NCBI GenBank assembly: GCA_000739535.1
Contig: DF820466.1
Location: 351,071 to 402,832 of the forward strand
Source of the DNA: Candidatus Vecturithrix granuli
GTDB taxonomy: Bacteria; Moduliflexota; Moduliflexia; Moduliflexales; Moduliflexaceae
Direction of reading: 5' to 3'
Length of the DNA stretch: 51,762 bases
Part shown: positions 4,124 through 45,620 of the stretch, in pieces
Position numbering within the stretch: position 1 is the stretch's first letter
Layout: each line of letters begins with the position of its first letter
The notes under the pieces: generated by a model
The model's input: the letters and a program-made list of their open reading frames with translations, nothing else
The model's database searches: none
Told to the model about the DNA's origin: nothing
Program-made: the position numbers and the translations under genes

Positions 4124-4256
4124 TACAATACTTCGGACAGTTTTGATTCCACCCCCCGCAAGCGGGGGGAAGCGCATCCGAGAGGGGTATGTCCAATTTC
4201 CCCCCGTTGACGGGGGGATAAAGGGGGGTCATACGAAAACTGTTCGAACTATTGTA
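4124..4256. repeat. MITE-like element, family B (termini TACAATACTTCGGACAGTTTT...AAAACTGTTCGAACTATTGTA, with internal C7/G7 hairpins)
   Basis: Seen in sequence. A reverse-orientation copy at 45375-45516 is nested inside a family A element. Confidence 0.8.
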
Positions 4257-4500
4257 TAGTACATAGTAGGGAAATTTTTTCAAGGTGTCAAACAATTCCT
4301 TTACAAAATTGACGAAATATTGTTTACTGTTTTGGGAATTTCAAAAACTTGTTCTCCAAATAAGTAATTATCAATAAGTTTTTTTAGTTTCTCGCAAAGC
4401 CCGCCAAGCTCGAAAAGAATGGATGTTCAAAGGCTTTGCGAGAGAAATCAAACAAATTTATTCATAACTACTTAGCAAGGATGCGAGAAATTCTTGCTTA

Positions 4501-4615
4501 GGTAATGGTTAAATGGGAAGTGATGCGTTCCCTGAGCGAAGTCGAAGGGAACAGTGAGCGGCTCGTTTCGACTTCGCTCAACGAGCGGGCATCACTTCCC
4601 ATTTAACCACTACCC
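4501..4615. repeat. MITE-like element, family A (GGTAGTGGTTAAATGGTAAGTGATG...CATCACTTACCATTTAACCACTACC), flanked by an 8-bp direct repeat CTTGCTTA
   Basis: Seen in sequence as a long imperfect palindrome. Other copies are at 32231-32344 (flanked by CAAATTTG direct repeats), 43164-43278 and 45359-45620 (carrying a nested family B element). Confidence 0.8.
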
Positions 4616-5278: not shown

Positions 5279-6445
5279 ATGCCGGAAGAGCGGACAGCTT
5301 ACGATGTGTTTCTCAGTTTCAACAGCGAAGACCGTGACGCTGTGCGAAAAATTGCGGAATATCTTGCGAAAGAGGTAAAGCTGCATCCCTGGTTCGATGA
5401 ATGGGATCTCAGTCCTGGAGATGAATGGATTGATGGCTTATACCGGGGATTAGAATCATCCGCAGTTTGCGCGATTTTTGTCGGCAAGAATGGTGAAGGT
5501 CCCTGGCAGAGACGAGAAATCAGAGCAGCCCTGATAGAACAAGCAGCACGGTCGGATTTTCGACTTATCCCTGTCCTCCTCCCTGGAACATCAAAACAGC
5601 CGCAATTGCCTCCGTTTTTAAAAGCGTTTATGTGGGTAGATTTGCGACAATATCTCAAGGATCCTGATGGATTGCGTCGTCTTGTCTGCGGGATTCGCGG
5701 CGAACGCCCGGGACGTCCTGTCACCGCCGAGGGCGAACCGGATTTGCGCCTGCACGAAATTGCGGTGGCCTATAATTTCGATTTGAACGAATTTGTGAAC
5801 GATTGTTTAGACGCGCTCTGGGGCAGGCGCGGAATTGTCGGATTTGGCGTGCCCTGCCTGTCGCCTGAATTTCTGAGCAACGTGAGCGAACGCCTGAAAT
5901 ATGAATTGGGACGCCAGAAAGTGCGCGTCAAACCGGCAATTGTGCTGCACCCGCTGTTTACCACTATCGAACAGGCGATTCTGACCGTGAGCCGGCGTTA
6001 CGCGCCGGCCTTGCAGGAAGGCGATGTGTTATTTACCGTGCAAGCAGCGGAAGAAGACGCGGGGCGGCAATTCTGGAACGCCCTGAGCCAGGCTGTGAAC
6101 CCGGCCATCCTGTCTCAACACCGCCTGATCGTTCTCCTGGCGGTCAATCCCGACGCCGGTTTCACGCAAGACATCATCCCGTTAAGCCAGCCGCAATTCA
6201 GAATCGCGGACATGATGCGCTGGGTCGCTCAAATCGTGCGAGCTTGCCAGTGGCCTGAAGAACTGATTGAGGAGTGGACCGACGAATTTCTGGAAGAATG
6301 TCATTGCGAAAATACGCTCCGGATTGATTGGGTCTATGATTATCTGGAAGCCATGTTAGACCTGCTGAGGCAAAAACCGCAACTGTACCAATTTCAGCAA
6401 GAATTATACACAAGGAGACAACGCTATGTCCAGACATCGCTTTGA
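5279..6445 (+). CDS. TIR-domain protein with a ~250-aa C-terminal helical domain (candidate vWA-MoxR-associated effector component)
   Basis: The N-terminal ~135 aa (YDVFLSFNSEDRDAVRKIAEYLAKE...WFDEWDLSPGDEW...VCAIFVGKNGEGPWQRREI...RLIPVLLPG) fit a TIR fold, and they are about 55% identical to the TIR domain of the NACHT protein at 21466. The gene overlaps the downstream ATPase gene by 20 nt. RBS AAAGGAAAGG. Confidence 0.8.
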   Translation: MPEERTAYDVFLSFNSEDRDAVRKIAEYLAKEVKLHPWFDEWDLSPGDEWIDGLYRGLESSAVCAIFVGKNGEGPWQRREIRAALIEQAARSDFRLIPVLLPGTSKQPQLPPFLKAFMWVDLRQYLKDPDGLRRLVCGIRGERPGRPVTAEGEPDLRLHEIAVAYNFDLNEFVNDCLDALWGRRGIVGFGVPCLSPEFLSNVSERLKYELGRQKVRVKPAIVLHPLFTTIEQAILTVSRRYAPALQEGDVLFTVQAAEEDAGRQFWNALSQAVNPAILSQHRLIVLLAVNPDAGFTQDIIPLSQPQFRIADMMRWVAQIVRACQWPEELIEEWTDEFLEECHCENTLRIDWVYDYLEAMLDLLRQKPQLYQFQQELYTRRQRYVQTSL

Positions 6446-7418
6446 TCTGTCGAAAACCTTTGAAAACCGGCAGGATCTGCCGCCCTTTCAGGAGCTTGAG
6501 GACCCGACCGTGCAGCTTGAAGGCGTGCCGCAGGAAAATTGGCCGAAACGCCAGGTGGAACGCGAACCCTATAAAGCCGGCGGCGAACTGATTGAGGCCG
6601 TGAATTTAGCCATGGCTTCAGGCCGGCCCCTGCTGCTGCAAGGCGATCCGGGCTGCGGCAAAACGCGCCTGGCTCATGCGGTGGCGTATGAATTGCAACT
6701 GCCCCTGGAGGAATGTTACATCAAATCCACGACCCGCGCCCAGGATTTGCTCTACACCTACGATGCGGTCAATCGCTTATACGATGCGCAGTTAGGTGCT
6801 GATGGTCCGCGTATCAACAGCATACCCAAATGCCAGCAGATCGCCAATTACATTCGCTTCGGCCCTTTGGGGCGCGCCATTATCCGCGCGCAATATGGCC
6901 GCCGCTCCGTGGTGCTGATTGATGAAATTGACAAGGCGGATCTCGATTTCCCCAACGATCTGCTGCTGGAACTCGACCGCTTGCAATTTCAGGTGGCCGA
7001 AGCGCCGGAAATGCACTACGCCGTGCCGGAAGCTCAGGATAACCTGCGTCCGGTCGTGTTTGTGACCCATAACGAAGAAAAAGCTCTGCCCACCGCTTTT
7101 TTACGGCGCTGTATTTTTCAGTATGTCGAATTTCCCGACAGCGAAGCCGAATTACTGGAAATCCTGGCCGCGCACGACATGACGCACGACGCCTTAAATC
7201 ACGAAGCAGTCAGTGTGATCAGGGAATTTCGTCAGAGAACCGGCTACGAAAAACTGCCGGGCCTGAGCGAATTGCTCGACTGGGTGGGTTATATGCAGAC
7301 CCTTGAACAAGAACAGCCCGAATTGAAGTTAAAAGATAAAGTGCGGAAATTGCCCTTCATCGGCTTCCTGTTCAAACACCAGAGCGACCAGAAACGGGCG
7401 AAAAAGGAATTGTTATGA
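6426..7418 (+). CDS. AAA+ ATPase, MoxR/AAA_5-like
   Basis: Walker A is LLLQGDPGCGKTRLA and Walker B is VVLIDEIDKAD. The size (330 aa) and the position directly upstream of a vWA protein match MoxR-vWA pairs. RBS AGGAGA. The start overlaps the TIR gene. Confidence 0.75.
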   Translation: MSRHRFDLSKTFENRQDLPPFQELEDPTVQLEGVPQENWPKRQVEREPYKAGGELIEAVNLAMASGRPLLLQGDPGCGKTRLAHAVAYELQLPLEECYIKSTTRAQDLLYTYDAVNRLYDAQLGADGPRINSIPKCQQIANYIRFGPLGRAIIRAQYGRRSVVLIDEIDKADLDFPNDLLLELDRLQFQVAEAPEMHYAVPEAQDNLRPVVFVTHNEEKALPTAFLRRCIFQYVEFPDSEAELLEILAAHDMTHDALNHEAVSVIREFRQRTGYEKLPGLSELLDWVGYMQTLEQEQPELKLKDKVRKLPFIGFLFKHQSDQKRAKKELL

Positions 7419-7440
7419 TTATTCAGCCCGCGAAACACGC

Positions 7441-7745
7441 GAAACACGCGAAAAAAAGAAGATTCTTTCGTGAAGTTATGGAACTACAAGGATTGAGTTT
7501 ACAAGGGATGGGTACTGCGTGTATCCGGCGTCTCAGCAATCCCTTGTTCCCTCAATCCTTCTGGTAGTCTCGCCCTACGTGGCGGGTTTATCGGCGCCAT
7601 TCCCGCCGCGTAGGGCGGGACTACTTTTTTACGAAATTATGTAGTAGTTCCACAACTTGCACGGAAGAACCGAAAAATATATTTTTCAACCAAACGTTCA
7701 ATCCGGTTCTTCCTTTTCGTGTGTTTCGCGTGTTTCGCGGGCAGA
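7441..7745. repeat. Composite insertion between the ATPase and vWA genes: a family C MITE (7481-7655) with a family D element (7561-7625) nested near its right end, all bracketed by inverted CGAAACACGCGAAACACGCG repeats (7440-7460 and 7718-7740)
   Basis: Seen in sequence. The family C right terminus GTAGTTCCACA reappears at 7645-7655, after the inserted GGTAGTCTCGCCCTACGTGGCGGG...GGGCGGGACTAC block. Confidence 0.6.
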
Positions 7746-7749
7746 TCGA

Positions 7750-8955
7750 ATGACAACGCCACATTCAACATCAAAGCCGGAAACATATTTTCTGTGGCCC
7801 TTGTTCCAGCAATTGCGCCGGCGCCATTTTCCGCTGGGGCCAGATGATTATGACGCTTTACGCCAGGCAATTCGCGCCGGATTCGGCTGGCGCTCGCGCC
7901 GGGATTTGCGCAATCTCTGTTGTCGCTTATGGGCCAAATCCCGGCAGGAACGGACAACCTTGTTCGAACTGTTCGAACAATACGATGTGCCTGATTGGGA
8001 TGCGACGCCTTTCTTGAGCGCGGGCGCGGCCCAGAAGCGTGAGCCAGGCGCGAGCAAATCTCTTGCTGAGCCGCCGGCCGCGCCAGAGACGCCAACCGGC
8101 GCAGAGAGCGTGCAGATTGTGGCCGAGGCGCGCGGTGATTTGCCGGAAATCATTGCGTCTATTGAGTTCCCGCAGGAGCCGGTGGTCTTGACTCCGCAGT
8201 TGCCGTTAACCTATCGTGAAGTCGCACAGGCCTGGCGGCGTTTACGCCAGCCGGTGCGCACGGGGCCGGCCATTGATCTGGATTTAGACGCCACCATTGC
8301 GCGGCGCTGCCGGTTGGGCATTGCGGCTGAGGTGGTGTTAACGCCGCGCCGCCGTAACACCGCGCGTTTGCTGCTGTTGGTTGACCGCCAGGGTTCGATG
8401 ACGCCTTTTCACGCTCTGAGCGCGGAAGTCTGTCTGGCAATCGAGCAGGCCGGCAATCTAGAACGGGTCGCGTTCTACTATTTTCACGACGTGCCGGCCG
8501 AAGGCGCGGATGAATCGGTGCTGCACGGCTTAGATCAATTGTTTCCGACTTTAGATACGGTGTTTGCGGAGATTGAGCCGTTGCAGACCGGCACGGTCTA
8601 TGCAGATCCGCAGTTGTTACAGCCTCGCGCCCTGGAAGACGTGCTGGCCGAGGCGGCGCAGGGCGCGGCGGTCGTGATTCTAAGCGACGCCGGGGCCGCG
8701 CGCGGCCGTTACGATCTGCTGCGCCTGCTGGATACGGTCGCCTTTCTCAAAGCCTTGCAAAGCTATACGCGCCGCTTTGTGTGGCTGAATCCGCTGCCAC
8801 GCAAATATTGGGCGCACAGCACGGCCGAACAAATCCAGCGTTACGTCCCTATGTTCGCCTTAGATCGCGCCGGCATGTACCGCGCTGTTAACGTGTTGCG
8901 AGGGAAACCTATAACGGATGAAAGAATGGAACGGATGGGAGACTACAACGAATGA
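7750..8955 (+). CDS. von Willebrand factor A (vWA) domain protein, CoxE-like
   Basis: It has a MIDAS-like LLLLVDRQGSM, a later VVILSDAG (hhhhSDG motif) and a C-terminal FVWLNPLP that resembles CoxE-type vWA proteins. It follows the MoxR-like ATPase. The start is set at the first ATG downstream of the MITE (7750); the ORF-track start at 7657 lies inside repeat sequence. Confidence 0.6.
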   Translation: MTTPHSTSKPETYFLWPLFQQLRRRHFPLGPDDYDALRQAIRAGFGWRSRRDLRNLCCRLWAKSRQERTTLFELFEQYDVPDWDATPFLSAGAAQKREPGASKSLAEPPAAPETPTGAESVQIVAEARGDLPEIIASIEFPQEPVVLTPQLPLTYREVAQAWRRLRQPVRTGPAIDLDLDATIARRCRLGIAAEVVLTPRRRNTARLLLLVDRQGSMTPFHALSAEVCLAIEQAGNLERVAFYYFHDVPAEGADESVLHGLDQLFPTLDTVFAEIEPLQTGTVYADPQLLQPRALEDVLAEAAQGAAVVILSDAGAARGRYDLLRLLDTVAFLKALQSYTRRFVWLNPLPRKYWAHSTAEQIQRYVPMFALDRAGMYRAVNVLRGKPITDERMERMGDYNE

Positions 8956-9060
8956 AGGAATAGAACAAATTTGTAAGAGGCACTCATTCTGTTGTCCTAC
9001 AACGAATTGAGAAATGGAACGGATAAAAGACTACTACAGCATTTCGGAAATAAATATACA

Positions 9061-9176
9061 CTGGTAGTCCCGCCCTACGTGGCGGGTTCATCAGCATCAT
9101 TCTACGTGGCGGGTAGTCCCGCCCGACGTGGCGGGTTCATCAGCATCATTCCCGCCGCGCAGGGCGGGGCTACCAG
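9061..9176. repeat. MITE-like element, family D (GGTAGTCCCGCCCTACGTGGCGGG ... CCCGCCGCGCAGGGCGGGGCTACC), with the internal half-site duplicated
   Basis: Seen in sequence. Other members are at 7561-7625 and in the composite array at 25914-26168. Confidence 0.75.
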
Positions 9177-9245
9177 TGTGTACTTTTTAACGAATTTCTT
9201 TTTCAAATTCGTTTCATTTCTTAATTCGTTGTAGTGTTCATATTG

Positions 9246-10709
9246 ATGCTGCAAGAAAATTTAACGCATGAACAACTTTTAGCGCAGCGGCGGGTACAGG
9301 AGTTTGCGCAGGCGGCAGGGGAAAACGCGCTGCACCTGGCCTGCCATGCGGCTTTGCCGGCGGCGTTGACCCCGGAACTGCTGCACTTGCTGCGCATCAA
9401 TTTTTTTCTGGACCCAAAGGATACAAAGACCGGCGACCCCCTGCCCTATACGGCCGAAACGGATTTGTTGCTCTCACCTTTGTGCCAGGAAATCGGGGAG
9501 CAACTGTATGAAATGCCCTCGGAAGTGCGCAACGTGCTGTTGGAACAGTTGCAGCAAGAGTTTGGCGCAGCGCGCATCCGGCGCGTGGCGGCTTTGCTCT
9601 GGAAATACTCGCTGAATCCGCGCCGCGCGCCCTGGCATGAGAATCGCCGCCTGGAACGCGCGCAGCAGTTGACGGCCCTGAATTTCCTCGATCCGCAGCA
9701 AGCGCGTCAATGGTTAGAACAGGCCGAAGAAAAGCAGGGCCGTAGCAAGACAGACTTGCGCGATTGGTTCATTGCCATGCGGCGCGAACTGCCGCGCAGC
9801 GCGATTCTGAGCGGCGGCGCAAAAACAGAGCCTTCCACAACACCCCAGGAACAGGAGTTCGCCTTTGAGACCGTGCGTGTGGATCGTTACGGCAAAATCA
9901 TTGAACGCCAACGTGAAACCGCCTGGCAGTTTACGGAAGAACTCGGCAACGGCGTTATGCTGGAAATGGTCAGGATTCCCGCCGGCCGCTTCCTGATGGG
10001 CGCGCCGGAATCCGAAGAGGGATCAAGCGACGATGAACGCCCGCAGCACGAGGTGCAGATTGCCCCCTTTTATATGGGCCGCTATCCGGTGACGCAAGCG
10101 CAGTGGCGGGCGGTCGTGGAAGTCGCGCCCCAGATTGAGCGCCCTTTAGAGCCTGATCCCTCGTCTTTCAAAGGTGCACAGCGGCCGGTGGAAAATGTCA
10201 TTTGGGATGACGCGGTGGAGTTTTGCCGGCGTTTGTCGCAGCTCACAGGCCAGGAATATCGCCTGCCCTCGGAAGCGGAATGGGAATACGCCTGCCGCGC
10301 CGGCACGACCACCCCCTTTTATTTCGGAGAGACGATTACTACAGATTTAGCGAATTATGATGGGAGTGAGCCTCCCTACGGCGAAGGACCCAAAGGAGTT
10401 TATCACGAACAGACTACCGAAGTCGGTATATTTCCGCCTAACGCTTTTGGCCTCTACGACATGCACGGCAACGTGTGGGAATGGTGTCTGGATGTGTGGA
10501 ACGATAGTCATAAGAATGCTCCTACAGACGGTAGCGCACGGCAAGAAGGAGCAGACATTAATTTACGTTTGTTAAAAGGCGGCTCGTGGTTCGATCCGGC
10601 CTGGAGCCTGCGTTGCGCTTATCGTATCGGGGTCGGGCGTGACGGCAGGGTCGGCGTCAGGGGCTTTCGTCCGGTGCGGGCTGTCGGCGGCCAGTCTTCT
10701 GATTTCTGA
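9246..10709 (+). CDS. FGE-sulfatase (formylglycine-generating-enzyme fold, SUMF1-like) domain protein with a ~230-aa helical N-terminal domain
   Basis: The C-terminal half (MVRIPAGRFLMGAPE...ERPQHEVQIAPFYMGRYPVTQAQW...NVIWDDAVEFCRRLS...YRLPSEAEWEYACRAGTTTPFYFG...GLYDMHGNVWEWCLD...GGSWFDPAWSLRCAYR) carries the FGE-sulfatase signature. The start uses the ATG at 9246; an in-frame GTG at 9234 is also possible. Confidence 0.8.
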   Translation: MLQENLTHEQLLAQRRVQEFAQAAGENALHLACHAALPAALTPELLHLLRINFFLDPKDTKTGDPLPYTAETDLLLSPLCQEIGEQLYEMPSEVRNVLLEQLQQEFGAARIRRVAALLWKYSLNPRRAPWHENRRLERAQQLTALNFLDPQQARQWLEQAEEKQGRSKTDLRDWFIAMRRELPRSAILSGGAKTEPSTTPQEQEFAFETVRVDRYGKIIERQRETAWQFTEELGNGVMLEMVRIPAGRFLMGAPESEEGSSDDERPQHEVQIAPFYMGRYPVTQAQWRAVVEVAPQIERPLEPDPSSFKGAQRPVENVIWDDAVEFCRRLSQLTGQEYRLPSEAEWEYACRAGTTTPFYFGETITTDLANYDGSEPPYGEGPKGVYHEQTTEVGIFPPNAFGLYDMHGNVWEWCLDVWNDSHKNAPTDGSARQEGADINLRLLKGGSWFDPAWSLRCAYRIGVGRDGRVGVRGFRPVRAVGGQSSDF

Positions 10710-10740
10710 TTTTCTGTTTTTCTGTTTTCTGAAGGGGAGT

Positions 10741-10980: not shown

Positions 10981-11388
10981 TTATTGAAAAGGATTGACAA
11001 TTTGCAGTTTTCCTTCAATCCTTTGCTTGTGCTGCATATCTTCTGAATATAAAATACTGCAAGAATTCTCCAGGGCCGAGGCAAGGATCATGCTATCCCA
11101 ATAAGAATAGGCGTATCTTTCAAGCATTGATAATGCCAATTTTATGGAATCCTGAGTAAGCAATGTCACAGTAAACGCCTTGAATAATTCGTCAACAACC
11201 GCACGCAGTTCCGAAACAGTCAGGTTCATTTTTCGATAAAGGACATTTGAAACTTCATTAATCACCTGTGTGCTGATGATACTTTTGCGAGTTCTCACAA
11301 GCTGTTGACATCTTTCCCTTTTATCCGGTTCATCTTCGGAATACAGATAAATAATGATATTCGAATCAATAAACACTTTATCTGGCAT
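10981..11388 (-). CDS. PIN-domain ribonuclease toxin (VapC-like)
   Basis: KVFIDSNIIIYLYSEDEPDKRERCQQL at the N-terminus and YSYWDSMILASAL...LYSED later on place acidic residues where a PIN fold needs them. The start is at Met-38 of the track ORF (11388), giving a 4-nt overlap with the upstream small ORF. Confidence 0.7.
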   Translation of the reverse strand: MPDKVFIDSNIIIYLYSEDEPDKRERCQQLVRTRKSIISTQVINEVSNVLYRKMNLTVSELRAVVDELFKAFTVTLLTQDSIKLALSMLERYAYSYWDSMILASALENSCSILYSEDMQHKQRIEGKLQIVNPFQ

Positions 11389-11593
11389 GGGCTTCTTCCC
11401 GGTTAAAGACATACCCTTTGGTTTTGATGCGCACCGCTTGAAAATCCTGATGAGGATGTTCAGCGTCAGCAGGAACAGCAGCCTCATCAAAAAGTACAAT
11501 CACCTTGACGGCCGCATGAGGTTTCAAAGCGTATATCAAAGGCACCTTAATCATTCCATCCGTAATTGTTGTCGTAAATTCGAGTGCTTGCAT
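11378..11593 (-). CDS. Putative antitoxin partner of the PIN toxin (about 72 aa)
   Basis: A small ORF lies immediately upstream of the PIN gene on the same strand, with an overlapping stop/start arrangement typical of type II TA pairs. The sequence family was not recognised with confidence. Confidence 0.45.
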   Translation of the reverse strand: MQALEFTTTITDGMIKVPLIYALKPHAAVKVIVLFDEAAVPADAEHPHQDFQAVRIKTKGYVFNREEAHAR

Positions 11594-11830
11594 CGTTATA
11601 CATTCCCTCAAAAAAATTATGACCCAGGCAATCTTATTCAAACTCTACTCGCAATATATGCGAATTCTCCATGACTGTCAAGGGTCTTTTCATATAATTC
11701 GACCTTAATTGCTCATGATGGAATCTTTGCTGCGCGTGATCTTGCTTGACATCCTCGCGGTTGGAATATATCTTAGGTTCAGAATTACAGGAATGAAGAA
11801 TAAGCAAGAATAAGAAAAGAGGCGAAACGT

Positions 11831-12604
11831 ATGTCGGTGAGTGTGTTGTTAGCCCGGAAAATTGATACTATTGCCCCGGAACTGAAAGATGTGCTCTGGA
11901 CCATGCTGGAAGAGATCGAGCGCAACCGGGAAGAAGCGGTCACGAAAGTTGAGTTTAACGAGTTGAAAGAAATCGTGCGCGATCTGGGTCTGGCCCAGCA
12001 GCGCACTGAAAAGCGCGTCGAAGAATTAGCAGAAGCGCAAAAAGAGTTAGCCGAAGCGCAGAATCGCACGGAGCAACGCGTTGAAGAATTAGCCGGGGCG
12101 CAAAAAGAATTGGCCGAAGCGCAGAAGCGCACAGAACAGAAAATCGAAGAACTGATCGAAGCGCAGAAGCGCACGGAAGAAGAGATTGCGAAACTGTCGC
12201 GTGGGTTGAATAATACGCGCAGTCAGGTAGGCGGATTGGCGCGCAGCGTGGCCTACGCCTTGGAGAATGAAGCCTATCGCAAGCTGCCAACGTACCTGAA
12301 TACCCGGCATGATCTGCGGCTTGAGGAACGGTTTATCCGCCAGGAACTCGGCGGCGAAGAAATGAATATCTTTGCCAAAGCCGTCCGCAATGGCGGCGAA
12401 GAGGTCATGTTAGTCGGCGAAACCGTTTTACGGTTAGATGATATTTCGAAATTTGCACAATTAGAGAAAAATGTCAAAATCGTCAAAGAACATTACCAAC
12501 TGCCGGTGGTGCCGATTCTGGTGACGCACTTTGCGCGTCCGAATCTGTTGGAATACGCCCGGAACGAAGGCATTATCGTGGTGCAGAGCTTTGACTGGGA
12601 CTAA
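11831..12604 (+). CDS. Coiled-coil protein with degenerate 14-aa repeats ([20 protein letters not shown]...) and a C-terminal globular domain; DUF3782-like
   Basis: The tandem heptad-like repeats are visible both in the translation and in the DNA. The C-terminal ~110 aa may adopt a PD-(D/E)xK-like fold, but that is an inference. RBS AAGAGG. Confidence 0.45.
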
Positions 12605-12611
12605 AGCTGTC

Positions 12612-12752
12612 CGGAGTGTCAAAGCTCTGCTTTGACAGCGAAAGCAGAGCTTTCGTACTCCGGGAGCTAACTTTGACAGCGAAAGCAGAGCTTTCGCACT
12701 CCGGGAGCTAACTTTGACAGCGAAAGCAGAGCTTTCGCACTCCGGGAGCTAA
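12612..12752. repeat. Repeat family J: a hairpin-pair element (GTCAAAGCTCTGCTTTGAC / CGAAAGCAGAGCTTTCG) followed by three tandem 41-nt copies
   Basis: Seen in sequence. Related copies lie at 1-35 (cut by the window edge) and at 32375-32423 (a perfect 49-nt palindrome). Confidence 0.75.
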
Positions 12753-12797
12753 AGCGTACTGCTGGTGCGAGCCTGGCGATTGATCGCCCGGCTACTG

Positions 12798-13025
12798 TTA
12801 AGAGATTTCAATTTTCGCGGAATGAACTTCAAAGATCGGGCCCATATTGCCCGCGCTCATGAGATCATCCCGGCGCCGGCCTTTGATTTCCGCTTTTTGA
12901 CCGTCGCGATACAGGTCATCATCGCCGCCGATCAATTCATACTTTTCGCCGTCAGGGGTTTCAAATTCCCACGCGCCCATGCCCAGATCGCGAAACTTCA
13001 CAATACCTTTGAGTATTTTCATCAT
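12798..13025 (-). CDS. Small hypothetical protein (75 aa) whose start overlaps the stop of the subtilase gene
   Basis: The sequence MMKILKGIVKFRDLGMGAWEFETPDGEKYELIGG... reads as coding. The ATGA overlap at 13022-13025 suggests co-transcription with the S8 peptidase gene. Confidence 0.4.
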   Translation of the reverse strand: MMKILKGIVKFRDLGMGAWEFETPDGEKYELIGGDDDLYRDGQKAEIKGRRRDDLMSAGNMGPIFEVHSAKIEIS

Positions 13026-14791
13026 GATTTTTTCCCCGCTAACACTGCTAATCCAAAGCAGAAGATGCCGTTCGCCAGCAGCCAGGCTTTGTCTAACAGG
13101 AAGCCTCCCGGAAGATAGGTGACATTTGCCAGAGAAAAAAAGGCGTCCACAAAGAAATGACTGGCCATACCAACAGCCAGGCCCATTGCAAACCATCGCA
13201 AGCGTTTTGTTCCCAAAAAGGCCACAATCAAGGCTAAAGGCAAGAGCGCACTGTGTAAGATCGGATTGATCAGACCTGCGCCATAGCCAAAGAACACCCG
13301 GTCGAGATTGGGAATGGGGGAACTGAGAACATGAATGACCGTTTGCGCTGCCCCTGACGCGGGAATGAAATCGAGAAAAAACAGTCCTGAGGATGAGAGA
13401 AACATGGCCAGGGAAAACAGAAAGGAGAAGAGTTTGCCATAGCCGTCGGAGCGTTTCAGAAGTTTAAAATAGACCAGGGCAAAGCCGATTCCGGCCAGAA
13501 AATAGATGAGGCTTTCTCTGAGTATGATAGGCGAGGCGACCGCAGCGGGAGAAAGATCTACCGCCTTTTGCACGGCTGCGGCAGCATTGACAATGCCAGC
13601 CCCATATTTCGTCTTATCTTTCTTTTGGGCAGTGCTGAATAAGATTTTTTCAATTTTAGCCGGATCTTTCACACCCAGCGAGACTAACAGTGCGGCCACG
13701 CCAGCCACGTGCGGTGAAGCCATGGATGTGCCCTGAAAATATTCATAGCTGTCTTTAGTTGGATCCGAACGCCCAATCGTATTTTGCAAAATCCCATGCT
13801 CAATGTTCGCTCTTGTATTACCGCCCGGCGCGGCAATATCAATCCCTTTGCCATAATTGGAATAGGGCGCAAGCTCGCCGTCAGGTCCCACGCTGGATAC
13901 GCCAAGCGCGTAAGGATACGCAGCCGGATAACTGGCGCGGTTACGGCTTTCGTTGCCGGCAGCGCACACCACGGTCACACCTTTTTTATGGGCATACTCT
14001 ACAGCTTCGCGCATGAGCTGGCTTTCGCCCGGCCCGCCCAGACTCATGTTGATCACATGCGCGCCATGATCCGCGGCATACACAATGGCTTCCGCAATAT
14101 CCGCAATATTCCCGTAGCCATAACGGTTCAAGACTTTCAAGGGCATAATTGAAGCTTTGTAGGCAATACCGGTTACGCCAATCTTATTATGCGTTGATTG
14201 CGCAATCGTTCCGGCCACATGCGTGCCATGTCCGTGATCGTCATTGGCGTGTTCATCGTCGTCAATAAAGTCATAGCCCTGCACAAACGCGGTTTGCGCC
14301 AAATCCGGCACGCGATGATATACACCGTTCTTATCTTTGTAATCTTCAAATGCCACGCCCGTGTCAATCACAGCAACCACAGCCCCTTTACCATCGGCTG
14401 TTTTCCAGGCTTCTTCCATAGACAACATGTTCATATTCCACTGTTTGGCATACATGGGATCATTCGGAAATTTCATGGCCTGGTAGAGATAGTTCGGTTC
14501 TGCATATTCGATCTCTTTTTCAGCGGTGAGTAACTGCGTCAAGCTTTGCAGTTGCTCTTGAGAAAGCGCGCCGACAGGAAATCGCAGGAGCGCCTCTTCT
14601 TTGGAAAAGATACTGTTATATTCCAGCGTGACGCCATATTTTTGCGCAATGGTCTGAATGAGTTCCAGGCTGGCGTGATCAACGAAATTGACGATCACTT
14701 CTTCATACTGAGGTTGGGCCGCCGACAGGCCCGGAAAAAATACACCCAACATGCCTGCCACCCCTATTATAACCCAAATGATATGTTTCAT
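13022..14791 (-). CDS. S8 family serine peptidase (subtilisin-like) with a signal peptide and a ~190-aa polytopic membrane C-terminal domain
   Basis: The catalytic triad motifs VAVIDTGV (Asp), HGTHVAG (His) and GTSMASPHVAG (Ser) are present. The N-terminal signal is MKHIIWVIIGVAGMLGVFFPGLSAAQ. The C-terminal part is hydrophobic, with about 5-6 predicted TM helices. Confidence 0.85.
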   Translation of the reverse strand: MKHIIWVIIGVAGMLGVFFPGLSAAQPQYEEVIVNFVDHASLELIQTIAQKYGVTLEYNSIFSKEEALLRFPVGALSQEQLQSLTQLLTAEKEIEYAEPNYLYQAMKFPNDPMYAKQWNMNMLSMEEAWKTADGKGAVVAVIDTGVAFEDYKDKNGVYHRVPDLAQTAFVQGYDFIDDDEHANDDHGHGTHVAGTIAQSTHNKIGVTGIAYKASIMPLKVLNRYGYGNIADIAEAIVYAADHGAHVINMSLGGPGESQLMREAVEYAHKKGVTVVCAAGNESRNRASYPAAYPYALGVSSVGPDGELAPYSNYGKGIDIAAPGGNTRANIEHGILQNTIGRSDPTKDSYEYFQGTSMASPHVAGVAALLVSLGVKDPAKIEKILFSTAQKKDKTKYGAGIVNAAAAVQKAVDLSPAAVASPIILRESLIYFLAGIGFALVYFKLLKRSDGYGKLFSFLFSLAMFLSSSGLFFLDFIPASGAAQTVIHVLSSPIPNLDRVFFGYGAGLINPILHSALLPLALIVAFLGTKRLRWFAMGLAVGMASHFFVDAFFSLANVTYLPGGFLLDKAWLLANGIFCFGLAVLAGKKS

Positions 14792-21465: not shown

Positions 21466-24400
21466 ATGATGACAGAAAAAACATATCAGGTCTTTCTGAG
21501 TTTTAACAGCCAGGATCGGGAGGCAGTGGAACAGATTGCTCTGTATCTGGCTGACAAGGCCGGGCTTCGTCCCTGGTTCGATCAATGGGAACTGATTCCG
21601 GGAGAACCGTGGACCCGCAATCTGGAACGCGGACTGGCAGCCTCTGCAACCTGCGCCGTGTTTGTCGGCAAGAGCGGCGAAGGCCCCTGGCAAATCCGCG
21701 AAGTCGAAACCGCGCTGCGGCACCAGGTCGAGAACTATGACTTCCGGGTCATTCCCGTGCTCTTGCCGGACGCTCCGCAAAAACCGGCGCTCCCCATGTT
21801 TCTCTCCGGGAATATGTGGGTTGACTTTCGTAAAGCCGGACTTGAAGATGACGACGCGCTCTGGCGGTTAGAATGCGGCATTCGCGGAAAATCGCCGGGA
21901 CGCGGCCGTCCGCAGCCAGCCGAACAAATCCAGGAAGACCAGGGAGAGCACAATCAGATCACGCCCGGATTTGACCCCACGCCTCTGCGCAACGCCTATC
22001 TGCGCTGGCTGCTGGAGCAGAGCAGTCAGCTTTCGCTGGCCGGCATTGACAAAAAAGCGGCCGGCAAAGGCGCGGAAGACCATTTAAATTTGAGCGCGAT
22101 TTATACGGCCCTGCTGACGCTTGAAGCTGAGCATGAGCGCGATCAGAAACCGGGTTTTTTGGAAAAACCCGGTTTCTCGTCCGAGGAAAGATCGCAGCGC
22201 CGCCTGTCGGCCGTGGCCCAACTCAACCGTCACGCCCGGTTAGTGCTCTTAGGCGACCCCGGCAGCGGTAAGAGCACCTTTGTCAATTTTGTGGTTTTAT
22301 GTCTGGCCGGAGAACTCTTATTCCCATCGGAAAATGGGCAAGAACCTGCCGACGGGAAAGAGGTTTACCCGAATCTGAAACTTTTGACCGCGCCGCTGCC
22401 GGATGATGAAGGCAACGATGCAGAGGAACCCCAGCCCTGGGAGCATGGCGCGCTGCTGCCGGTGCGCGTGATTCTGCGCGACTTCGCGGCGCGCGGTCTG
22501 CCGCCGGCCGGGCAGGAGGCTAAAGCCAGACACTTATGGCAGTTCATCGTCAAAGAATTACAGGCGAACATGCTTGGCGACTACGCTCCCTTTCTGCGCC
22601 AGCACTTGCAGAGCACAGGCGGTCTGATGCTGCTGGATGGCCTGGATGAAGTGCCGGAAGCGGACCAGCGCCGCCCGCAGATCAAGCAGGTGGTCGAGGA
22701 TTTCGGCCGCTGCTTTCCGCGCTGCCGTATGCTCGTCACCAGCCGCACCTACGCCTATCAGGAGCAGCACTGGCGCTTGAGCCATTTTGAAGACGTCACG
22801 CTGGCGTCTTTCAGCCAGGGACAAATCCGACGTTTTGTGGAGCGCTGGTACGCCTATATCGGCCGTCTGCGCGGCCTGAGCGCGGAGAATGCGCAGGGAC
22901 GGGCGGAATTGCTCAAGCGGGCGATCCTGAACAGCGACCGGCTCTACAGTCTGGCCGAACGGCCCCTGCTGCTGACGCTCATGGCCAGTCTGCACGCCTG
23001 GCGCGGCGGCAGCCTGCCGGAAAAACGCGAAGAACTGTATAACGATACCGTAGATTTGCTGCTCGACTGGTGGGAAAGTGCGAAAATGGCGACTACCGCC
23101 GATGGCAGTCGCAAGCTTGTGCAGCCCAGCCTGACCGAATTGCTCAATGTGGGCAAAGACTGCGTGCGCACAGCGTTGAATACCCTGGCGTTCCGGGCGC
23201 ACAAAGACCAGCAGCAGCTTCAGGGCACCGCCGATCTTGCCGAAACGGATCTGGTGGCTGAACTGATGGAAGTCAGCCAGAATCCAGACCTGAAGCCCGG
23301 GCGGTTAATTGAGCACCTCCGCGACCGCGCCGGATTGCTGGCGCCGCGCGGGGTCAAGGTCTATACCTTTCCGCACCGCACCTTTCAGGAATATCTGGCC
23401 GCCTGTTATTTGACCGAGGTGCAGGACGAGGACGAGCAATACCCGGAAAATGCCGCCCTTTTAGCGCGCCAGGAACCAAACCGCTGGCGCGAAGTGGCGT
23501 TGCTGGCCGGGGCCAAAGCCGCGCGCGGCAGCGCGCCGACCCTCTGGGCTTTGGCCGACGCCTTGTGTTATCAAGACGTGTCCGACACTTCTGACCTGGC
23601 TGACGCCTGGGGCGCGCTGCTGGCCGGCCAACTTGTAGCGGAAAACGCCGGCCTGCATAAGATCAGTCCACGCAACCAGGCCAAAATCAAGCGCATTTGT
23701 GAGTGGCTGGTCGCTATTGTCACAGAACGTGTTCCCTTCGACTCCGCTCAGGGAACGGGAACGGTCTTGCCGGCCGTGGAACGTGCACTGGCCGGGAACA
23801 TCCTGGCGCAGCTTGGGGACCCGCGTCCGGGCGTGGGCTGTCGCTTCCGTTCCCTGAGCGGAGTCGAAGGGAGCGGAGTCGAAGGGAGCGGAGTCGAAGG
23901 GAGCGGAGTCGAAGGGAGCGGAGTCGAAGGGAGCATGAGGCTGCCGAATATTGAATGGTGTGAGGCGTCGGCCGGGGCATTTATTATGGGCAGTGATGAC
24001 TACAGTGATGAACGTCCGCCGCATCGCGTGACGCTTTCAAGATCCTACGCCCTCAGCCGCTATCCGGTCACCAATGCGCAATATCAGACCTTTGTGACGG
24101 ATGGAGGTTATACGGAGAAATGGCAGACATGCTGGTCAAAAGATGGATGGAAATGGAAAGAAGAGCACGCGAAAACCGGACCAGGGAAATATGGCGGGGA
24201 GTTTGACCTGCCCAATCATCCGGTGATTGTGGTGTGCTGGCATGAGGCTGCCGCATTTTGTCAATGGTTGACGCGCCGTTTGCAGAAAATAGGGGAGTTG
24301 ACGGCGGATCAAGAAATTCGTTTACCGACTGAAGCTGAATGGGAAAAAGCGGCGCGCGGTGCGGATGGCCGCACCTATCCCTGGGGCAATGAGGCGATCA

Positions 24401-24741
24401 CACCGGAACATGCCAATTATGACGATACCGGCTTAGGCGTGACAAGCGCGGTCGGCTGTTTTCCGCGCGGCGCAAGCCCCTGCGACTGTGAAGACATGAG
24501 CGGCAATGTGTGGGAGTGGTGTTTAGATAGTTGTGATTTGGATAAGAATTATAATCTTGTCACTGATACCTACACTGATGGTATTATTGATCCACTCTGT
24601 ACAACGGGCTCGGACCGCGTGCTGCGGGGCGGCTCCTGGAGCAGCGACGCCAGGGGTTGCCGGTCGGCGTTCCGCTACGGGGGCGCCCCCGGCGACCGCA
24701 GCGGCATCGTCGGGTTCCGCCTCTTGAGGACGCCTTCGTAG
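21466..24741 (+). CDS. STAND NTPase with TIR N-terminus, central NACHT domain and a C-terminal FGE-sulfatase-like domain
   Basis: TIR: YQVFLSFNSQDREAVEQIALYLADK...WFDQWELIPGEPW. NACHT: Walker A LVLLGDPGSGKSTF, Walker B MLLDGLDEV, then TSR. FGE: FIMGSDDYSDERPPHRVTL...YPVTNAQY...RLPTEAEWEKAARG...GNVWEWCLD...GGSWSS. An in-frame (SGVEG)x5 tandem repeat and a KPGFLEKPGFS segment inside it are derived from dispersed repeat families. Confidence 0.85.
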   Translation: MMTEKTYQVFLSFNSQDREAVEQIALYLADKAGLRPWFDQWELIPGEPWTRNLERGLAASATCAVFVGKSGEGPWQIREVETALRHQVENYDFRVIPVLLPDAPQKPALPMFLSGNMWVDFRKAGLEDDDALWRLECGIRGKSPGRGRPQPAEQIQEDQGEHNQITPGFDPTPLRNAYLRWLLEQSSQLSLAGIDKKAAGKGAEDHLNLSAIYTALLTLEAEHERDQKPGFLEKPGFSSEERSQRRLSAVAQLNRHARLVLLGDPGSGKSTFVNFVVLCLAGELLFPSENGQEPADGKEVYPNLKLLTAPLPDDEGNDAEEPQPWEHGALLPVRVILRDFAARGLPPAGQEAKARHLWQFIVKELQANMLGDYAPFLRQHLQSTGGLMLLDGLDEVPEADQRRPQIKQVVEDFGRCFPRCRMLVTSRTYAYQEQHWRLSHFEDVTLASFSQGQIRRFVERWYAYIGRLRGLSAENAQGRAELLKRAILNSDRLYSLAERPLLLTLMASLHAWRGGSLPEKREELYNDTVDLLLDWWESAKMATTADGSRKLVQPSLTELLNVGKDCVRTALNTLAFRAHKDQQQLQGTADLAETDLVAELMEVSQNPDLKPGRLIEHLRDRAGLLAPRGVKVYTFPHRTFQEYLAACYLTEVQDEDEQYPENAALLARQEPNRWREVALLAGAKAARGSAPTLWALADALCYQDVSDTSDLADAWGALLAGQLVAENAGLHKISPRNQAKIKRICEWLVAIVTERVPFDSAQGTGTVLPAVERALAGNILAQLGDPRPGVGCRFRSLSGVEGSGVEGSGVEGSGVEGSGVEGSMRLPNIEWCEASAGAFIMGSDDYSDERPPHRVTLSRSYALSRYPVTNAQYQTFVTDGGYTEKWQTCWSKDGWKWKEEHAKTGPGKYGGEFDLPNHPVIVVCWHEAAAFCQWLTRRLQKIGELTADQEIRLPTEAEWEKAARGADGRTYPWGNEAITPEHANYDDTGLGVTSAVGCFPRGASPCDCEDMSGNVWEWCLDSCDLDKNYNLVTDTYTDGIIDPLCTTGSDRVLRGGSWSSDARGCRSAFRYGGAPGDRSGIVGFRLLRTPS
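22146..22176. repeat. Family F terminator-like palindrome embedded in frame inside the NACHT gene
   Basis: gaaaccgggttttttggaaaaacccggtttc, encoding KPGFLEKPGF. It is identical in core to the intergenic copies at 1940, 30594, 35427 and 50355. Confidence 0.7.
23857..23931. repeat. Five tandem 15-nt copies (gagcggagtcgaagg) inside the NACHT CDS, seeded by a 23-nt match to the internal segment of family A MITEs
   Basis: gttccctgagcggagtcgaaggga at 23849-23872 is identical to 45535-45558 inside the family A element. The array encodes SGVEGSGVEGSGVEGSGVEGSGVEG between the NACHT/helical region and the FGE domain. Confidence 0.75.
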
Positions 24742-24791: not shown

Positions 24792-25211
24792 CTGCGGGCG
24801 AGGCGACAGCCGCCCGCCGCTGCGCGTGCGATAGCCGCGCAGCGCGAAAAATTTTTTTAAGGCCCGGGGAAGAGATTGGTCTGGGAATTCAGCCCCAGGA
24901 ACGCCGGACTATGTTTGGGAAATGACAGGAGAGTTGGAGAACTCCAGGGACAAGAGATAAGAAGAGGATGAGATTGAAGGCACTTTGGCATGGGGGAGAA
25001 CTACAAGAATGGCATGTAAGCAAGAATCAGGGCGCGGCCGGTACAACGAATTAAAGAATAAAACGAATTTCCCCATCTCATTCGTTGATTTCTTTAATTC
25101 GTTGTAGTGGTTCGACTGCTGATATGATAAAGAATTGCCGGTTGACAAAAATCAAGAACAGATATATCATAAACTGTAAACAGATAACATCATGAAACAG
25201 AGGAAGACGGT

Positions 25212-25819: not shown

Positions 25820-25913
25820 CGGTTGACATCAAGATATTGTTGGCAAAATGATCGTATTCATCACACTCGCCTCTTTGGGTTAATTCTTCCGAACAGCCTG
25901 GAACTAGTACATA

Positions 25914-26168
25914 CTTTCGGATATAAGTACACAATGAAATAAATCTGGTAGCCCCGCCCTACGTGGCGGGAATGACTTTCGGATATAAGTACACAATGAA
26001 ATAAATCTGGTAGCCCCGCCCTACGTGGCGGGAATGACGCCGATAAACCCGCCACGTAGGGCGGGACTACCAATAAACTACCAATAAACCCGCCACGTAG
26101 GGCGGGACTACCAATAAACCCGCCACGTAGGGCGGGACTACCAATGTGTATTTATTTCCGAAACGCTG
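25914..26168. repeat. Composite family D array: a duplicated 62-nt left unit and three tandem ~30-nt right units (CCCGCCACGTAGGGCGGGACTACCAATAAA), bounded by the inverted flanks ctttcggatataagtacaca / tgtgtatttatttccgaaacg
   Basis: Seen in sequence. Confidence 0.7.
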
Positions 26169-32230: not shown

Positions 32231-32344
32231 GGTAGTGGTTCCATGGTAAGTGATGCCCGCTCGTTGAGCGAAGTCGAAACGAGCCGCTCACCGTTCCCTT
32301 CGACTTCGCTCAGGGAACGCATCACTTACCATGGAACCACTACC
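32231..32344. repeat. Family A MITE copy flanked by 8-bp direct repeats CAAATTTG
   Basis: Seen in sequence. It is adjacent to the family J palindrome at 32375-32423. Confidence 0.8.
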
Positions 32345-32442
32345 CAAATTTGTTGTGATACGTCGAGTTATCCCGGAGTGCGAAAGCTCTGCTTTCGCTG
32401 CAAAAGCAGAGCTTTTGCACTCCTGCCTTCCTGTTGTGAAGG

Positions 32443-37996: not shown

Positions 37997-38350
37997 TTCT
38001 CCTGGGGATCAACCACAGATTTCGCAGATTTCACAGATTTTCACATCCGAGAAATCTGCAAAAATTTGTGGCGATTTTTTTCGACTTCAGTGGTTTCGGG
38101 AATGAACCTTCAAATTTCCGAAACGCTTTCTGTTTCGGGAAAGCCGTTTCCTTCATTCCCGAAACAACTGAAACTCAAATGTCAAAAAGATCAATTAAAA
38201 AATCATCATACAATTTTCTTTACTTTGTATAATATGTGAATATAAAAGAGACAACTTTTTCCTGAAAAAAATATCTTTCTGAATTGAAGATCGTGAAAAG
38301 ACCCTGTAACATTATCCTTGATTTTTAGAGAACAATGGGAGGAAATAGGT

Positions 38351-40543: not shown

Positions 40544-40633
40544 GGAGAGTGTAAACGGAAGTGCGCTCTGATAGATTTTACTAGCCGAGGCGGCCTCCGT
40601 CTGACAGCGAGGCTGCCTCCCATGCTCGAATCG

Positions 40634-43110: not shown

Positions 43111-43539
43111 TAGCCTTCTCCTTCTGTAAATGGAATTCTCATCCGCGCCTGTTAAAAAAACTGGGTAGTGGTTAAATGGTAAGTGACATCCGCTCGTTGA
43201 GCGAAGTCGAAACGAGCCTGGACGTGTTCCCTTCGACTCCGCTCAGGGAACGCATCACTTACCATTTAACCACTACCCTCTTGTGTTGTTCATCTTTGCC
43301 AGTTTTTCAAGGTGAAATTGTAATATTTTAAGAAATGCTCTATAAAGGAATCTATTTTCTGTCAATTATTTTCTGAAAAAAATTCATGAAATTTTTTATT
43401 TAGTTCTGAAAATATAGATAATAACTACGGAACTAAAGGAATAAAGCTACAGGAATGAGGAATAAACAAGAATAAAATGCCATATCAGCAGAAAGAAACG
43501 ATTCTTGCTTATTCCTCATTCCTGTAGCTTTATTGCTGC

Positions 43540-44690: not shown

Positions 44691-45358
44691 GTACAAAAAA
44701 ATTATTTATTGTGACTTATTATGAAAAAAAATGAAAAAATGTCAAGAAACTTTATTTGGATTTAAATTTTTGTAACTATTTGCCAGGCTCTTTCGACGTA
44801 GGCGATTCAGTATTGTAGTAAGGGGGAAAGTCCTTCATCCTTTTTCGCCGTAGGCGATTCACAACCGCTGCGCGGTAGGATAAAAGGAGTTGGTGAGGCC
44901 GTCTTTCCTACTGTTAAATTCTTGTAAAACATGCTCGTCTCGACTTCGCTCGACGTGCGGTATTCTGGTCATCGAGTGAAGTCGAGATGACACATATCCA
45001 CAGCCCTGTTCCCAGGAGCGAATTGATCAAATGCCGTGTTTATTTGCAATAATGTTTACTACAACGGATTGAAGAATGGAACGGATTTTAAGAGGAATTC
45101 GTTCCATTCTTCAATCCGTTGTAGTATTTTAAAAAATATTGAACAGAAAGTGCAAAAAATTTTCTGCTATATTTTCTGTTTTTTCTTGACATTTTTTCAG
45201 CATGAAAATCTGACTCATATATCTGGATTAGTGATTCTTTCGTGAAGTTTATGGAAAAACTACATGAATGAGGAATAAACAAGAATAGAACGCTTTACAG
45301 AAAAAAAGGATTCATGCTTATTCTTTATTCATGTAGTTTCAAATGTAGTATAATATTC

Positions 45359-45620
45359 GGTAGTGGTTAAATGCAATAGTTCGGACAGTTTTCGTCTTAC
45401 CCCCCTTTATCCCCCCGTAAACGGGGGGAAACTGGAGAGGGGACGTGTCCTATCTGCTTCCCCCCGCTTGCGGGGGGATTGAGGGGGGTGGAATCAAAAC
45501 TGTCCGAAGTATTGTAAATGCTAAGTGATACTGTTCCCTGAGCGGAGTCGAAGGGAACACGTCCAGGCTCGTTTCGACTTCGCTCAACGAGCGGATGTCA
45601 CTTACCGTTTAACCATTACC
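45359..45620. repeat. Family A MITE carrying a nested family B MITE (45375-45516) with a TAAATG target duplication
   Basis: Seen in sequence. The family A left end GGTAGTGGTTAAATG is interrupted by CAATAGTTCGGACAGTTTT...AAAACTGTCCGAAGTATTG, after which TAAATG repeats and family A resumes to ...CGTTTAACCATTACC. Confidence 0.8.

Follow-up and report, generated by a model that had tools for sequence, protein, structure and literature searches.

Four genes in a row on the plus strand of a Candidatus Vecturithrix granuli contig raise the question of what kind of machine they encode, and in which direction a signal would pass through it. Ca. Vecturithrix granuli is a filamentous bacterium. The genes occupy 5.4 kb (positions 5279-10709) of the analysed stretch of 51,762 nucleotides (51.7 kb), which is called the window below. 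They encode, in order, a TIR-domain protein (P1), a MoxR-type ATPase (P2), a von Willebrand factor A (vWA) protein (P3) and a protein (P4) that ends in a domain of the formylglycine-generating enzyme (FGE)-sulfatase fold, abbreviated FGS. An earlier reading made from the letters alone (the sequence-only reading) had taken them for a vWA-MoxR ternary system with TIR on the third component and FGS in the sensor or effector position, and had implied that the system is new. The comparisons described here indicate that the locus is a complete MoxR-vWA ternary conflict system of the iSTAND2 type, a class that is already known.

Composition and class of the operon

All four genes, with the coordinates given in Table 1 and the 20-nt overlap of genes 1 and 2, were present in the list of open reading frames (ORFs), and the motifs quoted by the sequence-only reading (GDPGCGKT, LIDEID, DRQGSM, ILSDAG and WLNP) were all present in the translations. 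The mechanical ORFs of P3 and P4 are 7657-8955 and 9234-10709. The true start of P3 is almost certainly the ATG at 7750. That of P4 is the ATG at 9246, which gives a protein identical to GAK57651.1. Profile searches against Pfam, which the sequence-only reading had proposed as a check, matched TIR_2, AAA_5 (P2, E = 4.1e-10), VWA_CoxE (P3, E = 1.2e-13) and FGE-sulfatase. Both the Walker A (GDPGCGKT) and the Walker B (VVLIDEID) motifs of P2 are intact, and weak sequence matches in the PDB were midasin and CbbQ/NorQ. P3 has a variant metal-ion-dependent adhesion site (DRQGS...SDAG) that is family-wide. Across the alignment of vWA homologues, D212, S216 and S312 never vary, and D313 hardly does. 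P3 has 514 homologues, and the best of them are 50-65% identical, about 385-420 aa long and stand-alone.

Table 1. Features of the four-gene operon, in positions of the window. AF2, AlphaFold2; MITE, miniature inverted-repeat transposable element; DGR, diversity-generating retroelement.
Feature	Position (nt)	Strand	Residues	Basis or description
Gene 1 (P1)	5279-6445	+	388 aa	GAK57647.1 / U27_04614, exact
TIR domain	5300-5686	+	aa ~8-136	Pfam TIR_2, E = 2.8e-26 (aa 10-136)
iSTAND2 domain	~5741-6442	+	aa ~155-388	homology, AF2 model, published listing
Gene 2 (P2)	6426-7418	+	330 aa	GAK57648.1, exact
Repeat element 1	7423-7745			MITE-like, compound; fills MoxR/vWA junction; 32-nt terminal inverted repeats (94%), inner hairpins
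Gene 3 (P3)	7750-8955	+	401 aa	GAK57650.1 / U27_04617, exact
Repeat element 2	~8908-9236			MITE-like, compound; vWA 3' end and vWA/vWA-L junction; inverted repeats of 47-49 nt
Gene 4 (P4)	9246-10709	+	487 aa	GAK57651.1, exact
vWA-L linker	9246-~9815	+	aa 1-~190	homology of P4 N-terminal domain, fusion to vWA elsewhere
FGS domain	9963-10679	+	aa 244-482	Pfam FGE-sulfatase, E = 1.2e-57
GGSW...GFR region of gene 4	10578-10670	+		aligns with DGR variable region of nearest homologues

A survey of related loci through the vWA protein, with one genome per species, yielded 76 distinct loci of other genomes; three loci fetched earlier were added. The six-frame ORFs of the loci were searched by phmmer with six domains of the window, and the counts include the window. 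The vWA domain was found in 79 sequence sets, the MoxR domain, directly upstream of vWA, in 76, the N-terminal domain of P4 in 74, and the C-terminal domain of P1 in 58. MoxR is followed by vWA in a fixed order in 74 loci, and the order gene 1-MoxR-vWA-gene 4 is invariant wherever it is found. The constant order in 58-76 sequence sets indicates that the linkage is not a chance adjacency. The independently retrieved loci of Minicystis rosea, Nostocales HT-58-2, Scytonema HK-05, Geodermatophilus dictyosporus and Actinoplanes LAM7112 are also present in the published iSTAND2 table. Therefore, the surveyed family is the published family.

MoxR-vWA ternary conflict systems were defined by Kaur et al. 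(2020; eLife 9:e52696; PMC7159879), and the iSTAND2 and TERNS3 classes were added by Kaur, Iyer, Burroughs & Aravind (Kaur et al., 2021; eLife 10:e70394; PMC8195603). In Fig. 2-source data 1 of the latter paper, GAK57647.1 (U27_04614) is entered as "TIR+iSTAND2*-> MoxR->". As the gene-1 protein is in this table, the locus was already catalogued in 2021. The entry upholds the class assignment of the sequence-only reading and removes the implied novelty. The published neighbourhood string ends at MoxR, and the vWA and vWA-L+FGS genes are absent from it. The accession GAK57649 probably marks a further annotated gene in the gap between MoxR and vWA. This accession and the 331-nt repeat-filled gap are the likely cause of the short string. 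The present analysis completes the neighbourhood with vWA and vWA-L+FGS and adds fold models of iSTAND2 and vWA-L, the loss of the FGE cysteines in FGS, the DGR-type variable region and the insertions at the junctions. The classification is unchanged.

A second TIR+iSTAND2 protein of the same genome, GAK60733.1, is likewise in the table (Kaur et al., 2021). It belongs to a paralogous system beyond the window (U27_00629-U27_00631), and the vWA protein of that system (P0014) is 58% identical to the vWA protein of the window.

The published iSTAND2 systems (Kaur et al., 2021) have the layout seen here: a signalling domain or an effector-associated domain (EAD) fused to iSTAND2, then MoxR, then vWA, and then vWA-L with variable domains. 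The phyletic spread is also the same (filamentous cyanobacteria, Actinoplanes, Micromonospora, Frankia, Chloroflexota and myxobacteria). They differ in that no published row contains vWA-L+FGS, and the window has repeat elements at both 3' junctions. The systems of the VMAP / iSTAND type 1 (Kaur et al., 2020) share the chaperone pair, a third component with an N-terminal TIR, peptidase or EAD, and the DGR linkage; in iSTAND systems, no domain is linked to vWA more often than FGS. In contrast to them, the window has no VMAP-C domain, as the C-terminal 250 aa of P1 gave no Pfam match even at E <= 10. Residues 1-60 of P2 contain neither the WxhapG nor the PsWRxa motif of the VMAP-type MoxR N-terminal extension, and vWA-L plus FGS is a gene of its own, not a C-terminal fusion to vWA. 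In the case of TERNS3 (Kaur et al., 2021), direct fusion of TIR to the third component is typical, and Accumulibacter examples contain vWA-L+TIR+FGS_fold. The core of TERNS3, however, is TERNS3-N+TERNS3, which is another alpha+beta domain, and the authors' table sets the protein of the window under iSTAND2.

The iSTAND2, vWA-L and FGS domains

The C-terminal domain of P1 matches the EAD1+iSTAND2 gene of Scytonema HK-05 (BLASTP, E = 7e-30) and a gene-1 homologue of Desulfobacterales (BLASTP, E = 7e-60). An exhaustive phmmer scan of 1.84 billion proteins gave just 265 cluster representatives at E <= 1e-3, so the iSTAND2 family is rare. A word-index homology search with the domain returned the protein itself only. 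In a joint alignment search with iSTAND2 and vWA-L, the vWA-L matches dominated, and one further iSTAND2 protein was obtained. Only the neighbouring genes and the exhaustive scan brought the family to light.

The sequence-only reading had described this domain as helical and had called for structure prediction of it and of the N-terminal half of P4. The AF2 model of the iSTAND2 domain, for which 120 phmmer members were aligned, is confident, with a predicted local distance difference test (pLDDT) score of 92.7. The model shows a beta-alpha-beta core and then a helical lid, that is, an AAA+/STAND-like alpha/beta fold instead of a helical adaptor. The structures in the table of the model are the RFC small subunit (10.2), ORC4 (9.7), Trip13 (9.5), the NLR proteins NRC2 (8.8) and ZAR1 (8.2), and RdrA (8.2). 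A profile search of the domain against the PDB sequences gave nothing significant. Strand 1 (GIVGFGV) is followed by just four residues (PCLS) ahead of the helix, and in the 120-sequence alignment both the Walker A motif (GxxxxGK[ST]) and the conserved lysine are absent. Their absence fits the designation "inactive STAND". According to the model, the P1 C-terminal domain is an AAA+/STAND-like alpha/beta fold with eroded NTP-binding motifs, matching iSTAND2.

The N-terminal partners of iSTAND2 were counted among the 120 alignment members. EAD1 is present in 32 of them, EAD7 in 10, TIR_2 in nine, DUF4062 and bDLD1 in four each, EAD8 and EAD9 in three each, SIR2 in two, and a trypsin-type peptidase in 2-3. 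The direct TIR-iSTAND2 fusion is a recurrent minority state (9/120). In P1, the TIR motif W-x-x-x-E is kept as WQRRE, and E80 of this motif is the putative catalytic glutamate, at the position of TIR NADases.

The same WQRRE is kept in the TIR domain of a second protein in the window. It is a 1091-aa conflict-type protein (21466-24741, plus strand) with TIR_2 (aa 9-131), NACHT/nSTAND3 and FGE-sulfatase (aa 833-1088) domains. Its TIR domain shows 58% protein identity and about 70-72% DNA identity to that of gene 1, which suggests exchange of the TIR domain between the two systems within the genome.

The N-terminal half of P4 had been left unassigned, and its 240 aa gave no Pfam match even at E <= 10. 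At three distant loci (L069, L070 and L078), vWA, this domain and FGS are encoded in one polypeptide. Because the domain is fused between vWA and FGS there, it is identified as vWA-L, the conserved linker of 74 sequence sets. The domain (~170 aa) is conserved in 70 database homologues, and the modules C-terminal to it are unrelated and highly variable. They include TIR, FHA, pentapeptide, HEAT/TPR/WD40, GUN4, FGE-sulfatase (13), Lcl_C, CHAT, EADs, NACHT/NB-ARC, GGDEF and nucleoside phosphorylase. In iSTAND2 systems, vWA-L plus effectors are encoded by a separate gene (Kaur et al., 2021). The AF2 model of vWA-L (pLDDT 84.5) shows helices, a beta-hairpin at aa 81-89 and then a helical bundle, with a winged-helix-like part ahead of the bundle. 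Small winged-helix domains are among the structures listed for the model. Neither Foldseek nor a sequence profile search against the PDB gave anything significant for vWA-L. A likeness of vWA-L to the STAND winged-helix/arm region is only suggestive.

The best PDB sequence match of FGS is PvdO (E = 8.5e-38), and the DGR protein TvpA is also matched (E = 1.2e-20). In the HMMER alignment with human FGE (2aft/2afy), the catalytic cysteines are replaced in FGS (C336 by Asp and C341 by Ala). With both catalytic cysteines replaced, FGS does not qualify as an active formylglycine-generating enzyme.

Among the vWA-L+FGS homologues whose genomic context was looked up, P0150 (60% identical, locus L080) and P0160 (54% identical, locus L081) are the closest. 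Both metagenomic operons have the order gene 1-MoxR-vWA-vWA-L+FGS and are directly followed by bAvd and reverse transcriptase (RT) genes. Gene 1 of L081 encodes a single protein of EAD7 + iSTAND2 length. The variable region (VR) and template repeat (TR) of L080 form a pair of 125 nt (4155-4279 / 5850-5974), in which 24 of the 26 mismatches are at TR adenines. In the 121-nt pair of L081 (10380-10500 / 12051-12171), 16 of the 18 mismatches are at TR adenines. The TR copies are downstream of RT in both loci, and a third locus, L074, carries the same Avd, RT and TR cassette. At the positions of the TR Asn codons (AAC) of L080 and L081, the window has F, D, A, Y, I, V and G, mostly in NNC codons. 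Judged by this alignment, the GGSW...GFR region of gene 4 looks like a diversified or formerly diversified VR. The earlier account of FGS had missed this match of its C-terminus to a DGR variable region in its nearest relatives.

In L081, a stand-alone FGE-sulfatase gene is located past RT (12335-13180). It aligns in part with the first target (72%) and may be a second DGR target.

Direction of signalling and integrity of the operon

With moderate confidence, we read the locus as a complete iSTAND2 MoxR-vWA conflict system with sensing by FGS, gating by MoxR-vWA and NADase output by TIR. In this mechanism, FGS, a C-type-lectin fold without the FGE cysteines, would be a ligand-binding receptor for an invader-derived molecule. 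The vWA-L linker, fused to vWA in other systems, would tether FGS to the CoxE-type vWA co-chaperone, and ligand binding would be passed via vWA-L and vWA to the MoxR ring. ATP-driven remodelling by MoxR would set a threshold and release or assemble TIR-iSTAND2. The TIR domains brought together would then cleave NAD+, and the resulting NAD+ depletion or ADP-ribose-derived signal would stop the infected cell in the filament. The wiring with FGS as the receptor is favoured because TIR is the sole plausible enzymatic output, and FGS is a binding fold with hypermutated homologues. DGR-diversified C-type lectin (CLec) domains have been argued to be the sensors in MoxR-vWA systems, and in those systems of multicellular bacteria FGS/CLec likewise adjoins MoxR and vWA genes (Doré et al., 2024; PNAS 121:e2316469121). 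It has been proposed that MoxR-vWA ternary systems serve multicellular bacteria as immune machines comparable to NLRs or the apoptosome. The locus is a compact example, and its one clear enzymatic output (TIR) and one clear non-enzymatic receptor (FGS) make it suited to telling the sensing end from the acting end.

Several points weigh against this reading. The direction from FGS to TIR is deduced, and the published model for iSTAND2 systems runs the other way, with the iSTAND2 module as the invader sensor and the vWA-L-linked domains as effectors (Kaur et al., 2021). The PDB alignments of the TIR domain to AbTir end at residue 70, before E80, and the glutamate is assigned by the motif alone. 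Neither a TR-like repeat of 10310-10729 nor an RT or Avd homologue was found in the window. In this it differs from the systems of Doré et al. (2024) and from the homologues in L080, L081 and L074; for Thiohalocapsa, a DGR that serves its target in trans, from another part of the genome, has been described. The repeat insertions, one with a terminator-like hairpin, may reduce the expression of genes 3 and 4. The PADLOC models detected no known defence system at the locus, with weak single-domain matches only, and NCBIfam likewise gave only sub-threshold single-domain matches for the operon proteins. No experimental test of any iSTAND2 system was found in the searched literature, in line with the statement of the sequence-only reading that this exact four-gene combination is not known to have been characterized experimentally. 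The only experimental support found for threat sensing by MoxR-vWA is from a different class, the Esr pathways of Actinomycetales (bioRxiv 10.64898/2026.09.08.750141). These also combine a MoxR-vWA pair with a variable sensor, but they have a beta-propeller sensor, a kinase/FHA output and Esx secretion, and no iSTAND2, TIR or FGS.

The opposite wiring is a serious though less probable rival. The inactive STAND would sense the invader, for example its nucleic acid, TIR would make an NAD+-derived signal, MoxR-vWA would set the threshold, and vWA-L+FGS would be the effector, for example by sequestering an invader component. Such a wiring was proposed in print for the iSTAND and iSTAND2 systems (PMC8195603), and clear effector enzymes (CHAT, nucleoside phosphorylase, GGDEF and TIR) are encoded elsewhere at the position of gene 4. 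Here, however, gene 4 has no enzymatic effector, as FGS lacks the FGE cysteines, and the FGS C-terminus is DGR-diversified and ligand-binding in the nearest homologues, a pattern more in keeping with a receptor than with an effector.

A further idea, which we regard as rather doubtful, is that of a split STAND/NOD protein. The vWA-L domain would be the winged helix and helical arm, and iSTAND2 would be the core, like a nucleotide-binding domain, with its lid. The two halves would be held apart or joined by MoxR-vWA. FGS would take the place of the LRR/TPR/WD40 sensor of NLR proteins, as a frozen or trans-served DGR target.

The sequence-only reading had placed MITE insertions at 7441-7745 and 8950-9237. 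The elements are real, with the boundaries revised as in Table 1. The hairpin unit GTAGTCCCGCCCTACGTGGCGGG is common to both elements and has 10 copies in the window, versus 0 expected. In repeat element 2, a 40-nt hairpin unit is duplicated. The start of this element is inside the last vWA codons, and the terminal modules recur at 25062-25109 and 45058-45126 (families D6 and D15). At least 120 metagenome contigs contain the outer-arm 22-mer of repeat element 1, which forms inverted pairs in three cases, and only the arms of about 40-46 nt are common to these copies. What recurs of the repeat elements is thus limited to arms or hairpin units, and no target-site duplication could be defined for them. 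The label "MITE-like" seems reasonable.

The gene junctions of the relatives, measured as extrapolated junctions, are tight and normally overlap. The MoxR/vWA junction has a median of about -16 nt and is shorter than 150 nt in 66 of 74 loci, versus 331 nt in the window. For the vWA/vWA-L junction, the median is about -13 nt and 60 of 67 are shorter than 150 nt, versus 290 nt. Thus the operon could be a decaying relic, in which the insertions broke the transcriptional/translational coupling, vWA and vWA-L+FGS are misdosed, and the system is non-functional. On the plus strand of repeat element 1, which is the coding strand, a GC hairpin followed by a T-run is present at 7601-7630, and repeat element 2 supplies the codons of the P3 tail past RGKP (the last ~12); in a strain variant, the vWA protein ends with RGKPGELREQ. 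Against the relic, none of the four ORFs is broken and every conserved motif is kept, and intact copies of genes 1-3, at least 90% identical, are present in other assemblies. Expanded junctions occur in 7-8 other loci with intact genes, and terminator-like sites are no more frequent in the region than in shuffled sequence. The relic is therefore judged unlikely. As for the suggestion that the operon may be partly disrupted, the insertions replace the junctions and rewrite the last vWA codons only, and no conserved domain is interrupted.

An origin of genes 3 and 4 from an ancestral vWA-FGS fusion, cut in two by a repeat element, was rejected for this clade, in which the best 120 of the 514 vWA homologues are nearly all stand-alone. 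It was also ruled out by the close loci, as gene 4 is separate in nearly all of them and the fusions are present only in the three distant loci named above.

CoxD/CoxE and NorQ/NorD are classical MoxR-vWA chaperones for the maturation of metal centres, and by analogy with such pairs, and with PvdO as the best PDB match of FGS, the operon might be a housekeeping chaperone with no conflict role, whose client would be a metalloenzyme or else an oxidase of the FGE-like kind (PvdO, for example). This is very improbable, given the TIR fusion, the hypervariable C-termini of gene 4, the EAD and death-like adaptors on gene 1, the DGR linkage of the nearest homologues, and the absence of a conserved client enzyme gene beside the operon.

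Other features of the window

An Rfam scan of the whole window gave no match. The operon is directly followed by an oppositely oriented gene for a PIN-domain protein (10981-11499, minus strand, E = 1.3e-11). An 87-aa ORF (11378-11641, minus strand) is located upstream of the PIN gene and overlaps it, and the two may form a VapBC-like toxin-antitoxin pair. Next on the plus strand, an ORF of 257 aa without a Pfam match (11831-12604) has three 63-nt tandem repeats with the coiled-coil-like motif AQ(K/N)RTE...EEL (family D9). A 741-aa protein, also without a Pfam match, is encoded at 38318-40543 (plus strand). Its C-terminal ~180 aa (39995-40549) are extremely acidic and rich in D/E/G/S, with a repeat of 15-nt period (families D1 and D2) and a GC skew of 0.34.

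The region of the TIR-NACHT-FGS gene (21466-24741) has a raised GC content of 0.60-0.62. A copy of the palindromic hairpin AAACCGGGTTT...AAACCCGGTTT is located inside this reading frame (22127-22176), in the linker near aa 220. The other copies of this hairpin (family D5), at 1922, 30576, 35410 and 50336, lie where genes end or shortly beyond, as terminators do. At 25913-26141, the GTAGTCCCGCCC hairpin unit forms a tandem cluster. Further families of short palindromic intergenic repeats are located at 4526-4614, 32258-32356, 43191-43289 and 45532-45620, and at 12611-12743 and 32373-32423. The genome appears rich in MITE-like elements and in elements resembling repetitive extragenic palindromic (REP) sequences.

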